Source: Escherichia phage Ec_Makalu_003. Taken from it: a DNA stretch of 64,000 bases. A model generated the notes under the pieces. That model made no database searches, was not told the origin of the DNA, and saw nothing but the letters and a program-made list of their open reading frames with translations. Each line of letters starts with the position of its first letter. The first letter of the stretch is position 1. Location of the stretch: the sequence record MN882349.1; one strand, 5' to 3'. Positions 17,803 to 30,487 of the stretch are shown in pieces. The translations under genes were made by a program, and so were the position numbers.

Positions 17803-18005
17803 TTACATGTAGGGCAATGCGGTTCTTTAATATAATACCCGTCTGTCTTTGGAACACTAACAGGAGCGGTTTTTATATTGTATTCAGTGAAACAACGAAA
17901 ACAAGTTACGTTTTCTACAGACTGACGTTTAACCCAATCGCCGGAATATAGATCATTTTTATTTGCCATATTCAACCACCACAATATTGATATCTGGAGT
18001 AGCAA
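17775..18005 (-). CDS. Cys-rich small protein (putative Zn-ribbon)
   Basis: 76 aa; 'CFRCF..CPTCKC'. Confidence 0.4.
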   Translation of the reverse strand: MLLQISILWWLNMANKNDLYSGDWVKRQSVENVTCFRCFTEYNIKTAPVSVPKTDGYYIKEPHCPTCKCRLYWSHL

Positions 18006-18414
18006 TATTAATGATTTCTTCTACGCATTCCCACTCAAGGCCACCGATACCGCAACCGATTTTAGGGATATAGAAAGGCTGTATAGCACCTTCAAAAACA
18101 TCATTGAGAGACTCAAATCCTTTCAGGATAGCACTATATTCAGCATTTGGACCAGGTCGGAATTGGGTATAGAGATTCACCCCGCACCAGTTATAACCAT
18201 TAACTTGATGAGTCCAGACACTAAACCCACCCAGCTTTTCTACCTTACCGCGAGAAGTTTGCTTGTCAATCTCTAACGCTTGCGGGAACTCTTTTGCGAT
18301 ATCCGCAGCAATACCAGCGCCCATAGTATGAAAACAATTACAACCATGAATTAAATGACCGTTTCCTTGTTTAAACAGGGCGATGAGATCGCCCTTTACA
18401 GTATCAATAATCAT
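17959..18414 (-). CDS. macro-domain protein (ADP-ribose binding/processing)
   Basis: 151 aa; 'HGCNCFHTMGAGIAADIAKEFP' and 'IPKIGCGIGGL' match macro-domain core motifs. Confidence 0.7.
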   Translation of the reverse strand: MIIDTVKGDLIALFKQGNGHLIHGCNCFHTMGAGIAADIAKEFPQALEIDKQTSRGKVEKLGGFSVWTHQVNGYNWCGVNLYTQFRPGPNAEYSAILKGFESLNDVFEGAIQPFYIPKIGCGIGGLEWECVEEIINIATPDINIVVVEYGK

Positions 18415-26625: not shown

Positions 26626-26844
26626 TTATTTATATCGCTTTCTCTCGCGACGTTTTTGATCTTCTTCCTTGATAGAGTTAAATGCATCAAAAAGACACAT
26701 GACACTAATAATAAACATAACCGTATTTTCTACGATATCCCACGGCTTCGCATCAGTACAGATCCCCCAAACGGTAAGAAATGCAAATAAGGCAGAAGAG
26801 ATCACAAGCATGATACTTGCTAAGATATAAAAGGTCATCTTCAT
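26626..26844 (-). CDS. small membrane protein
   Basis: 72 aa; two TM helices; basic C-tail 'KRRERKRYK'. Confidence 0.45.
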   Translation of the reverse strand: MKMTFYILASIMLVISSALFAFLTVWGICTDAKPWDIVENTVMFIISVMCLFDAFNSIKEEDQKRRERKRYK

Positions 26845-27035
26845 GGTTTTACCTCAATTCTTCGATATTCATCACACATCCACGCAGTAAGCAAGAATCC
26901 CAACACATAAGCAACAAAATACGTTAATGCTTCTTCTGGTTCGGTGCTATGCGCCATCATCAGACCAGCGAGAAAGGTCTTAACAATTACATTTAAAATA
27001 ATTAGCCACGCAAATAATTTCATCGTTTGCCCCAT
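26841..27035 (-). CDS. small membrane protein
   Basis: 64 aa; hydrophobic. Confidence 0.45.
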   Translation of the reverse strand: MGQTMKLFAWLIILNVIVKTFLAGLMMAHSTEPEEALTYFVAYVLGFLLTAWMCDEYRRIEVKP

Positions 27036-27259
27036 TTCGGTCGAGTCTTCTCAAACTTATACATTCCGTAACAATCTCGAATCATCCACGTAACAAGAGC
27101 ACCAGTCAACACAGACAATACACAGAAGAAGTAAAACGGTCCGGTTGCATTATCAACATGAGCAAGCCATGTAAAGAATACACATGCTAAGAATGTAAAG
27201 AACATCATAAAACACAAGAAAGCAAAATATTTTATGCTACTCATATCGCCACCATACAA
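27020..27259 (-). CDS. small membrane protein
   Basis: 79 aa; hydrophobic. Confidence 0.45.
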   Translation of the reverse strand: MYGGDMSSIKYFAFLCFMMFFTFLACVFFTWLAHVDNATGPFYFFCVLSVLTGALVTWMIRDCYGMYKFEKTRPKWGKR

Positions 27260-27347
27260 CAGATCATAAGAAACCCCAACGCAATAAGAATTGCATCAAA
27301 TTTAGTGAACTCCGGTCCACCTATCAACATCATTCGTTCCTGTTCAG

Positions 27348-27545
27348 TCATAGATCACAGATCCATCTAAAAGCACCACATACAGCGATCAGGAGTGTAG
27401 GAACACTTGAGAAGAAAACCAATGTACAAAAATCATCTAGTGTAATACCGGAATAACTACCTACTGCAATCACACCGATGATCAGACACAGAAAGAAAAC
27501 AAATGCAATCAGAAACAAAGTATTGCTAAACAGTTTAGTGATCAT
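27348..27545 (-). CDS. small membrane protein
   Basis: 65 aa; hydrophobic. Confidence 0.45.
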   Translation of the reverse strand: MITKLFSNTLFLIAFVFFLCLIIGVIAVGSYSGITLDDFCTLVFFSSVPTLLIAVCGAFRWICDL

Positions 27546-27739
27546 TAGACACCCCCACGACGGTCAATTTCAAAAACTTTCTTATCACAGACAAAGCAGG
27601 TCACTACAGCCTCATTGACTTCCGCAAATTGTTGTGTTACCCACTTAAGGTCAGAGCTAAACAATGTTTTGTTAATAACAAATGTTTTACCTTTCTTATC
27701 TTTACCCATAAATTTTGCGTTAACCATATCCAATTCCAT
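27545..27739 (-). CDS. hypothetical protein
   Basis: 64-aa ORF. Confidence 0.4.
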   Translation of the reverse strand: MELDMVNAKFMGKDKKGKTFVINKTLFSSDLKWVTQQFAEVNEAVVTCFVCDKKVFEIDRRGGV

Positions 27740-27974: not shown

Positions 27975-28352
27975 TTAAGAATATTTTACTTCGTCTACAA
28001 TGTCTTTCATGACATTAATTTCCATTCCGGTCAGAACACGTTGGAACATGTGCTGCACATACGCTTTCAGGTATTCATTTGATGGCTTGCTATCAAAAGT
28101 CTTTTTAATGTAGTAGTCATCACCGAAAGCTACTGTAATTACATTTTCGTCGTCGTTCCAGGCAATATAAGCAAATTTTCCGTTATCCCAGAAGCGAGCA
28201 CTAATTGCTACTTTGGTTGAATCGAATCCGACTTCGCTGTGAGATTCAAGAACTACTTGCGTGCCCGTTTCTTTATGAATGTAGTAGCGGGATACTAAGT
28301 CAAAGTTACGGGTGTAGTGACATTCGAATTTATCTTTAAACATCATCATCAT
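27975..28352 (-). CDS. hypothetical protein
   Basis: 125-aa ORF with promoter cassette upstream. Confidence 0.5.
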   Translation of the reverse strand: MMMMFKDKFECHYTRNFDLVSRYYIHKETGTQVVLESHSEVGFDSTKVAISARFWDNGKFAYIAWNDDENVITVAFGDDYYIKKTFDSKPSNEYLKAYVQHMFQRVLTGMEINVMKDIVDEVKYS

Positions 28353-28420
28353 TTTTTGATTCTCCTAAGTGTGTTTCGTTTCGATGTGTGCATTATGCTA
28401 TATTCGTTTATGGTTGTCAA
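28353..28420 (-). promoter_or_regulatory. early promoter/stem-loop cassette copy P
   Basis: conserved RBS and leader GTGTTTCGTTTCGATGTGTG, -35 TGTCAA (rc). Confidence 0.55.
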
Positions 28421-28424
28421 CACA

Positions 28425-28456
28425 TAAAAACAAAAAACCCCGAAAAAAATTTCGGG
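28425..28456 (-). terminator. rho-independent terminator after 57B/acb1
   Basis: CCCCGAAA-AAAA-TTTCGGGG hairpin followed by a long U-tract on minus strand. Confidence 0.65.
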
Positions 28457-28464
28457 GTATAGAA

Positions 28465-28935
28465 TTACAGTTTGGTCGTCCACTCCAGGTCTAGATCTTC
28501 GACATATTCATGTGATCGGACAATCTCTAAATCGAACTCTAGGTCAGTGCCAAATTTACGCGCACCAACATCATAAGAAAGCGTGATATGCGGTACATAT
28601 TCAGGATAATCCCACGTCGCACCTAAAGCAGTGCCGATATCGTGTCTGAATTGCATGTAGTCGCTTTCAAATGCCAGCACAAGTGCATTAGTACCGGATT
28701 GAGTTTCAAACACTTTCAGATGGCACAGAGAGCCTAAGAACTTCTCTCCTTCTTCTGGGATAAACGGAACATAAACACGAGAATATAAGATCGTGCTATG
28801 AAGTTTATCACGAGGAACGGCATTAGGCAGATCGTAGAACTCCTGCAATTTTTCAATGCGGTCTAGTGTATCCTCAGTGAATTTAACCGCCGCATATGTA
28901 CCTTTAACGGATTCTCGAAACGGGGTCATAATCAA
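28465..28935 (-). CDS. acb1: 2H-phosphoesterase (gene 57B position; Acb1-type cyclic-nucleotide phosphodiesterase)
   Basis: 156 aa; two H-x-(T/S)-x motifs ('HSTILYS', 'HITLSYD') typical of the 2H/LigT fold; immediately upstream of 57A as in T4. Confidence 0.7.
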   Translation of the reverse strand: MIMTPFRESVKGTYAAVKFTEDTLDRIEKLQEFYDLPNAVPRDKLHSTILYSRVYVPFIPEEGEKFLGSLCHLKVFETQSGTNALVLAFESDYMQFRHDIGTALGATWDYPEYVPHITLSYDVGARKFGTDLEFDLEIVRSHEYVEDLDLEWTTKL

Positions 28936-29198
28936 GCCTCCGTGATCAGTTCTACTTCCTCGTCTGCTTCTTCTGCGTCTTCTTCTTTAGGGAGAAGTGC
29001 TTTCACTTCTTCGACAATCGCATCAAGGGAAACAGTGCCGTTTTCGTCTGGCTGAATACCCAGAATGCGTACCAGTTCCATCAATACACGCTCACGATCT
29101 TTCAGTTGGCCTTCTAAGAATGCGGCCTTTTCTTGAGTGTCAAACAGACGTACTTTCAGGACATTAATCATTTGTTCATGCTGATTGGACATATTCAC
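28932..29198 (-). CDS. 57A: tail-fibre assembly chaperone gp57A
   Basis: 88 aa; coiled-coil with acidic C-tail; position before gene 1. Confidence 0.75.
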   Translation of the reverse strand: MNMSNQHEQMINVLKVRLFDTQEKAAFLEGQLKDRERVLMELVRILGIQPDENGTVSLDAIVEEVKALLPKEEDAEEADEEVELITEA

Positions 29199-29224: not shown

Positions 29225-29881
29225 TTAAATGTTCGCGAGAATCGCGCTTTCAAATTCTTCTAATGTACCATTATTTATGATAATGGTTTCACCGTCAATA
29301 GGCAAAATTCCTTTTTCGGTGGAGTGAGTCGATACAATACCAGTATCACGATGAATATGCAACACCTTTGCTCCCATAGCACGCATGAGAGCAATTTCAA
29401 TAGGCTGACGCACATCAACCACTACAAAATACCCTTCTTCATTTTTGCGCTTCATAAACTCATTCACGAAGAGATTACACCAATAAAGCGGATTGATCAA
29501 GTTAACCATTATATCAGTACCGAGAGTGGTTAACATGAGACGAATAGACCAGACGTTATTATGTTTTTCGCCAATCTCATTAACGACCTTGTAAATCTCA
29601 GACAGACGATCACAAGTAAAGGAACTACCGCCATACTTCGAATCTAGCATAAGCAGACACTGAATAAACCACTTATGCGCGGTATATGTATCAATACCTA
29701 GATCGGCTTCTCTGTCACGCCCTAACCCGTCAAAGTCAAGATAAGTCAGACCTAAGTCTGGTTGACATTCGCATAAGATTTCTTTGATCGGTGCTGCCAG
29801 TTGATAACTGTGTCCATCAATGATTAACGCGGCAGTGTCTTTTCCTACTCGCTTTTTACCACAAAGTGCAATCAATTTCAT
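29225..29881 (-). CDS. 1: deoxynucleoside monophosphate kinase
   Basis: 218 aa; P-loop 'CGKKRVGKDT'; canonical 1-3-2-4 order. Confidence 0.85.
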   Translation of the reverse strand: MKLIALCGKKRVGKDTAALIIDGHSYQLAAPIKEILCECQPDLGLTYLDFDGLGRDREADLGIDTYTAHKWFIQCLLMLDSKYGGSSFTCDRLSEIYKVVNEIGEKHNNVWSIRLMLTTLGTDIMVNLINPLYWCNLFVNEFMKRKNEEGYFVVVDVRQPIEIALMRAMGAKVLHIHRDTGIVSTHSTEKGILPIDGETIIINNGTLEEFESAILANI

Positions 29882-29896
29882 AATATAAGCCTCTTG

Positions 29897-30487
29897 TTAC
29901 TTTCTAAAAGCAGGGTGCATAGCTTTAATTCCTTCCACTCGCTGACGATCCGCCGCCTGAATTGCTGGGCGAGGAACGATCAGTTGACCATCACGTTCAA
30001 TGCTCATTGTTTTAAATGGAAGAATTGCAGTACACACCAGAGATTCATGCATATCATCGGTGTATGTTAACTCAAGTTCCCCCAATTGTGAACACCAACA
30101 ACCATAAAAGTTAAAGGTGCATACAATGTTACGGCGTTCATTGTCCATCATGTGAACTTGAACGGCTTCCGGCATTGAATCCTTCCACGCGGTGGAGTTA
30201 CCGTTATTGTAGTCTACTATAGAAAGCATCCATGTGTAAAGGTTTAGATAGCTTTCCAAATGCTCATCGACAATAAACCGGACTACCAGCGGGTCAAACT
30301 CTACATGACTGGAAGGATAATCAGCGACCGCCAAACCATATTGACCAGCAACTTGCTTAGTCGGTGGAATGGTTATAGCCGGAAGTGTAACACCTTGAGC
30401 ATTTAAAGTAAAGCCTTTTGTTAGTTGACCATCTGGAATACTGATCTGCCAGTTACTAGGGTTAGCATAGTTAAAGAGATTAGACAT
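29897..30487 (-). CDS. 3: tail completion / sheath stabiliser protein gp3
   Basis: 196 aa; position between genes 1 and 2. Confidence 0.75.
   Translation of the reverse strand: MSNLFNYANPSNWQISIPDGQLTKGFTLNAQGVTLPAITIPPTKQVAGQYGLAVADYPSSHVEFDPLVVRFIVDEHLESYLNLYTWMLSIVDYNNGNSTAWKDSMPEAVQVHMMDNERRNIVCTFNFYGCWCSQLGELELTYTDDMHESLVCTAILPFKTMSIERDGQLIVPRPAIQAADRQRVEGIKAMHPAFRK

Follow-up and report, generated by a model that had tools for sequence, protein, structure and literature searches.

The 57B locus and its genes

The window analysed here, a stretch of 64,000 nucleotides from Escherichia phage Ec_Makalu_003 (MN882349.1), belongs to a Krischvirus, an RB49-like phage of the T4 type. On its minus strand it carries a short gene, for which we use the name acb1, that directly follows a homologue of the T4 gene 57A. 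The features of the locus are as follows.

29897..30487, minus strand: gene 3 homologue (tail tube terminator or sheath stabiliser); tblastn with T4 gp3 1.8e-49, and annotation in relatives
29225..29881, minus strand: gene 1 homologue (dNMP kinase); Pfam DNMK 5.5e-68, tblastn with T4 gp1 2e-32
29298..29270, minus strand: promoter-like site in the 3' end of gene 1, TTGACG-17 nt-AATAAT, 10/12; a consensus match only
28932..29198, minus strand: 57A homologue (tail-fibre assembly chaperone); Pfam GP57 28.2 bits (cut-off 27), PHROG_1002 (tail fiber chaperone) 1.1e-26
28941..28937, minus strand: Shine-Dalgarno motif GGAGG of acb1, within the last codons of 57A, with a 7-nt spacer to the ATG
28465..28935, minus strand: acb1 open reading frame as mechanically called, with a TTG start at 28935
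28930..28935, minus strand: the six bases from the TTG to the ATG of acb1, including the 57A stop codon TGA (28934..28932)
28465..28929, minus strand: acb1, the 57B orthologue as we read it, 154 aa plus stop, with the ATG at 28929
28458..28437, minus strand: intrinsic-terminator-like hairpin plus TTTTTTGTTTT, with 9 pairs (5 of them G-C), 7 nt past the acb1 stop
28420..28392, minus strand: sigma-70-type promoter-like site, TTGACA-17 nt-CATAAT, 11/12; a consensus match only

For acb1 a start at the ATG (28929) is likelier than one at the TTG (28935): GGAGG stands 7 nt before this ATG, and the annotated proteins of the relatives begin at the equivalent ATG and are 154 aa long. A ribosome-binding site is likewise annotated at the matching place in Ec_Makalu_002, and the six bases at 28930..28935 probably lie outside the coding sequence of acb1.

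The gene is well represented in public databases. At the DNA level the locus is 97-98% identical to that of Ec_Makalu_002, RB49, KFS-EC, the MIZ phages and others. Phages Skers, Whisky and Ec_Makalu_002 encode exactly the same protein (100% identity), versions of at least 99% identity are present in 55 phage records, and other Krischvirus isolates have the open reading frame intact and without change. The hosts of these phages are E. coli and Shigella. The Krischvirus records label the product 'hypothetical protein', 'RNA ligase' or 'putative RNA 2...', not Acb1. A search of the literature found no paper treating Acb1 together with Krischvirus or RB49.

Gene order and transcription unit

The minus-strand order 3-1-57A-acb1 of the window is the T4 order 3-1-57A-57B. 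The same arrangement is found in Acinetobacter phage Mokit, Aeromonas phage AsFcp_4, Vibrio phage K571 and Klebsiella phage 05F, which extend it to four other genera of the Straboviridae (Hadassahvirus, Angelvirus, a Vibrio T4-like phage and Slopekvirus), and the 57B proteins of all four phages belong to Pfam Acb1 too. A first-pass annotation of this DNA had placed the gene 'at the 57B position', which agrees with its location directly after 57A, on the same strand, within the 3-1-57A-57B block known from T4. It had also described the gene as lying immediately upstream of 57A; the adjacency is correct, the direction is not, since on the minus strand, which carries both genes, acb1 is transcribed downstream of 57A, just as 57B is in T4.

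The ribosome-binding site of acb1 is embedded in the 3'-terminal codons of 57A, whose stop codon ends 2 nt before the ATG; this layout suggests that the translation of the two genes is coupled. At the other end of the gene, the hairpin at 28458..28437 coincides in place with a terminator annotated in Ec_Makalu_002. The succession of this hairpin and a near-consensus promoter-like site (28420..28392) ahead of the next gene points to acb1 as the last gene of its transcription unit, and the promoter-like site would open a separate early unit for the gene at 27975..28352. The weaker site within gene 1 (29298..29270) might tentatively account for early transcription of 57A and acb1. The region searched contained 17 such sites, with 8.6 expected. 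On the minus strand from 26634 to 64000 no T4-type late promoter TATAAATA was found; there is only a one-mismatch form, AATAAATA, before gene 3.

Assignment to the Acb1 family

The first-pass annotation had read the gene as a 2H phosphoesterase and a candidate anti-CBASS nuclease of the Acb1 type, on the strength of two H-x-T/S-x motifs. The protein contains exactly two such motifs, H44-S-T-I and H114-I-T-L, which align with H44/T46 and H113/T115 of T4 Acb1. Taken alone, the motif pair is weak evidence of identity and within chance: at least two H-x-T/S-x motifs also occur in 13 of the 90 open reading frames of at least 100 aa in the 64,000-nt window, and 13% of residue shuffles of the protein likewise show two.

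Comparisons over the entire protein are far more telling. Against the Pfam Acb1 profile (PF23474) it scores 174.4 bits (E 1.5e-51; curated cut-off 27), with an alignment that spans profile positions 1-143 of 144. A search of all chains in the PDB returned a single match, the Acb1 of Erwinia phage FBB1 (E 1.8e-43), solved in the apo form (7T26) and with 3'3'-cGAMP (7T27); residues 10-153 of the query pair with chain residues 2-143 at 53% identity. The T4 57B/Acb1 protein (NP_049750.1), the founder of the family, is 48% identical over the full length. As sequence matches, the full-length hit to the Acb1 profile and the hit to a solved Acb1 structure are to be placed far beyond chance, and together with the T4 comparison they bear out the earlier reading.

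A single-sequence AlphaFold2 model of the protein had a mean pLDDT of 37.6, too poor for use. The fold can nevertheless be regarded as settled because of the 53% identity to the FBB1 Acb1 crystal structure, and the protein is predicted to adopt the compact 2H phosphoesterase fold of the solved Acb1 enzymes. Judged from its sequence, it shows every Acb1-family feature that can be tested at that level. The gene is very probably the Krischvirus orthologue of T4 Acb1 (57B), encoding a 2H phosphodiesterase that would work by the Acb1 mechanism.

Catalytic and ligand-binding residues

In T4 Acb1 the catalytic tetrad is formed by H44, T46, H113 and T115, the bases of the ligand stack on the aromatic residues Y12, W74, F107 and W147, the N6 of adenine is contacted by E141, and residues 145-152 form a C-terminal lid (PMC9117128). 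These published numbers agree with the T4 sequence, and all nine functional residues are either kept in the Ec_Makalu_003 protein or exchanged for another aromatic residue. The tetrad corresponds to H44, T46, H114 and T116, invariant in an alignment of seven sequences; the first-pass annotation had proposed precisely such an alignment as a check, and both histidines fall on the catalytic H44 and H113 of T4 Acb1. The stacking residues are Y12, F74, Y108 and W150, of which F74 and Y108 are aromatic-for-aromatic replacements relative to T4 and are also found at these positions in the crystallised FBB1 Acb1. The adenine-contacting glutamate, E144, is invariant in both alignments made. The lid comprises approximately residues 148-154, its C-terminal LEWTTKL pairing with LDWADDLK of the T4 lid.

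The 57B/Acb1 homologue of the Slopekvirus Klebsiella phage vB_KpnM_05F (locus L007, 2459..3082, plus strand) departs from the common form. It is 207 aa long, with an extension of about 50 aa beyond the Acb1 domain, and has a lysine at the position of the lid tryptophan, which is conserved in the other six aligned proteins.

Proposed mechanism

A CBASS host that senses infection would respond through its CD-NTase, which would make cyclic dinucleotides or trinucleotides (3'3'-cGAMP, cUA, cAA, cAAA or cAAG, for instance). If it works as the T4 and FBB1 enzymes do, the Acb1 orthologue would take up those containing at least one adenosine in a U-shaped pocket, where the bases would be stacked on Y12, F74, Y108 and W150, E144 would read the adenine N6 and the C-terminal lid would shut over the ligand. 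The H44/T46 and H114/T116 tetrad would then carry out metal-independent acid-base catalysis, the 2'-OH of the adenosine attacking the 3'-5' bond, and a 2',3'-cyclic phosphate intermediate would be converted to a linear 3'-phosphate product that should be unable to activate the CBASS effector. With the effectors kept off, the phage would escape abortive infection. Enzymes of the T4/FBB1 type do not bind cGG or cA4 (PMC9117128). For the Krischvirus orthologue itself we infer catalytic activity, substrate range, expression timing and the anti-CBASS effect in vivo by analogy with its characterised relatives.

Alternative readings and substrate range

The labels in the databases would make the protein a 2'-5' RNA ligase or RNA 2',3'-cyclic phosphodiesterase of the LigT type, healing RNA ends such as those of tRNA cut by host anticodon nucleases. 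PHROG_755 and many GenBank records carry the name 'RNA ligase', and the protein does give weak matches to the Pfam families 2_5_RNA_ligase2 (PF13563, 19.4 bits) and LigT_PEase (PF02834, 14.1 bits); moreover, the Acb1 reaction itself forms and resolves a 2',3'-cyclic phosphate, so that some cyclic-phosphodiesterase chemistry is shared. However, both scores are below the family cut-offs (27 and 23.3, respectively), as against 174 bits for Acb1, and the residues that define a pocket for cyclic oligonucleotides, namely the stacking aromatics, the adenine-reading glutamate and the lid tryptophan, are all conserved. Within infected cells the T4 orthologue cleaves cGAMP, and on hosts without CBASS the loss of acb1 leaves the growth of T4 normal (PMC9117128). 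The name 'RNA ligase' is an old label passed on by homology, and a LigT-type role for the protein is extremely improbable.

A true Acb1-family enzyme might, on the other hand, have its main target in vivo outside CBASS, either in the cA3 of type III CRISPR or in a spectrum narrowed to avoid decoys (2'3'-c-di-AMP) and the Panoptes systems. This would be in keeping with the cleavage of cAAA, which is cA3, by T4 Acb1, with the relative PDE-9, which selectively spares 2'3'-c-di-AMP through differences in its core (Doherty et al. 2025), and with the 52% of positions at which the protein differs from T4 Acb1. Against it, T4 Acb1 does not cleave cA4 (PMC9117128). All the pocket residues named for the T4 and FBB1 enzymes are kept, and the sequence gives no sign of a changed specificity. 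In E. coli and Shigella, the hosts of these phages, CBASS is common, whereas type III CRISPR is seldom found. We therefore hold a main target other than CBASS to be very unlikely. Substrate range and products vary even among close 2H phosphodiesterases and are set by the protein core (Doherty et al. 2025); for this reason, and given an identity of only 48-53% to the enzymes tested, the exact substrate spectrum of the Ec_Makalu_003 protein is uncertain. The divergence of 52%, the residues F74 and Y108 and a two-residue insertion at 132-133 could speak for a spectrum shifted relative to T4 Acb1, for example one that spares 2'3'-c-di-AMP yet destroys CBASS signals, in an enzyme that would also form part of a lineage-specific anti-defence cluster with Dmd and a 125-aa protein (see below). 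We give this reading a slim chance, and an Acb1 orthologue directed at CBASS signals is the reading that we carry forward.

Other genes in the vicinity

The following genes of the window are of interest in relation to host defence or to the position of acb1.

27975..28352, minus strand: 125-aa protein, function unassigned; phrog_15253, with only a sub-threshold match to Pfam Gp30.7
27545..27739, minus strand: homologue of Dmd (discriminator of mRNA degradation), an antitoxin against RnlA/LsoA; PF17587 5.7e-13, PHROG_2102 3.6e-28
20755..21453, minus strand: Pol-beta-type nucleotidyltransferase of the RlaP family; PF10127 ('RNA repair pathway') 1.4e-13, PHROG_388
17959..18414: macro-domain gene, orthologue of T4 Tk.4 (45% identity)

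The distance from acb1 to the Dmd homologue downstream of it is only 0.7 kb, so that two counter-defence genes stand close together in this lineage. Between them, the 125-aa protein is encoded at the place of the T4 anti-restriction gene ipI, which itself had no tblastn match in the window. Downstream of Dmd there are four short open reading frames (64-79 aa, 26626..27545, minus strand) whose translations read as strongly hydrophobic and membrane-like; one of them (27348..27545, minus strand) matched only phrog_17225, a family with no function assigned.

The first-pass annotation had regarded the nucleotidyltransferase and macro-domain genes as neighbours that gave acb1 a functional context. 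Their distances from acb1 are 7 and 10 kb, respectively, and no link is evident; in the relative MIZ4, 26 annotated genes separate the nucleotidyltransferase from acb1 and 33 the macro-domain gene. The macro-domain gene is situated between tk and vs, as is Tk.4 in T4. A functional connection of acb1 with either gene was rejected on the grounds of this distance, of the RlaP and Tk.4 identities and of the T4-like tk-vs setting of the macro-domain gene. The RlaP-family gene adjoins a GrcA-like vs.6 gene and had no tblastn match from the T4 genes compared.

Three consecutive open reading frames (111, 86 and 64 aa; 19900..20733, minus strand) lie between regB and the nucleotidyltransferase. All match phrog_6261 and/or phrog_15978 and appear to be tandem paralogues, and they stand where T4 has vs.3-vs.5, including the gene of the cGAMP sponge Acb2 (Vs.4). 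By tblastn at E <=0.01, no homologue of Acb2/Vs.4 was detected in the window.

Significance

The gene is already known, identical sequences being public and a curated Pfam family covering it; it is an ordinary catalogued gene and its recognition here opens no new question. The widespread labels 'RNA ligase' and 'hypothetical protein' on Krischvirus acb1 are out of date. This RB49-like phage carries, like T4, an intact predicted counter-defence against CBASS signalling, which is useful for the prediction of host range: the phage should resist CBASS of the cGAMP and cAAA types. The phage should equally be open to attack by Panoptes guard systems, since these respond to the destruction of their decoy nucleotide by Acb1. 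According to recent work (including Doherty et al. 2025), Acb1 degrades the decoys 2'3'-c-di-AMP and cA3 and thereby sets off Panoptes of types I and II.

Comparison with known Acb1 enzymes

In T4, 57B is the enzyme responsible for the cleavage of cGAMP in infected cells, and deletion of acb1 causes a plating defect of more than 300-fold on CBASS hosts (PMC9117128). All nine further Acb1 homologues tested cleaved 3'3'-cGAMP and cAAA (Hobbs et al. 2022, PMC9117128). The same study describes a lysate screen that took in the RB49-species phage vB_EcoM-G2494, and it reports the degradation of CBASS signals by T4-related phages (PMC9117128).

The Acb1 domain also occurs in another context. In Pseudomonas phage psageK9 (NC_074661), gp70 (locus L008, 1052..2854, plus strand) is a protein of 600 aa, encoded next to the terminase, that joins a portal domain (PF06381, residues 38-385, 5e-89) to a C-terminal Acb1 domain (PF23474, residues 457-598, 1.9e-43), a fusion that could place the nuclease in the virion.

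The cellular 2H phosphoesterases, LigT included, share with the Ec_Makalu_003 protein the superfamily signature of two H-x-T/S-x motifs, visible in the weak Pfam matches. They differ in that these matches stay under the family cut-offs, while Acb1 is distinguished by an aromatic pocket for cyclic oligonucleotides and a C-terminal lid (PMC9117128).

T4 Acb1 is much closer. It is 152 aa long as compared to 154 aa here, and the HxT/HxT tetrad is the same, with Y12, the adenine-reading glutamate and the lid tryptophan kept; in contrast, T4 W74 is replaced by phenylalanine and T4 F107 by tyrosine, and the Ec_Makalu_003 protein has one extra residue after position 80 in addition to the two-residue insertion at 132-133. 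The genes are also set slightly differently, in that the 57A and 57B reading frames share 4 nt in T4 whereas here 2 nt lie between the 57A stop and the acb1 ATG, and 57B is followed by ipI in T4 but in the window by the unrelated 125-aa protein, which lies past the terminator and has its own promoter-like site. The FBB1 enzyme resembles the Ec_Makalu_003 protein over nearly the whole crystallised chain, and the two have the same phenylalanine and tyrosine stacking residues and the same L-E-W motif in the lid; they are set apart by a two-residue insertion before the last strand in the Ec_Makalu_003 protein and by the host genus. The Krischvirus 57B proteins deposited in GenBank (for example those of Skers, Whisky, Ec_Makalu_002 and RB49) differ from the Acb1 of the window in nothing of substance.
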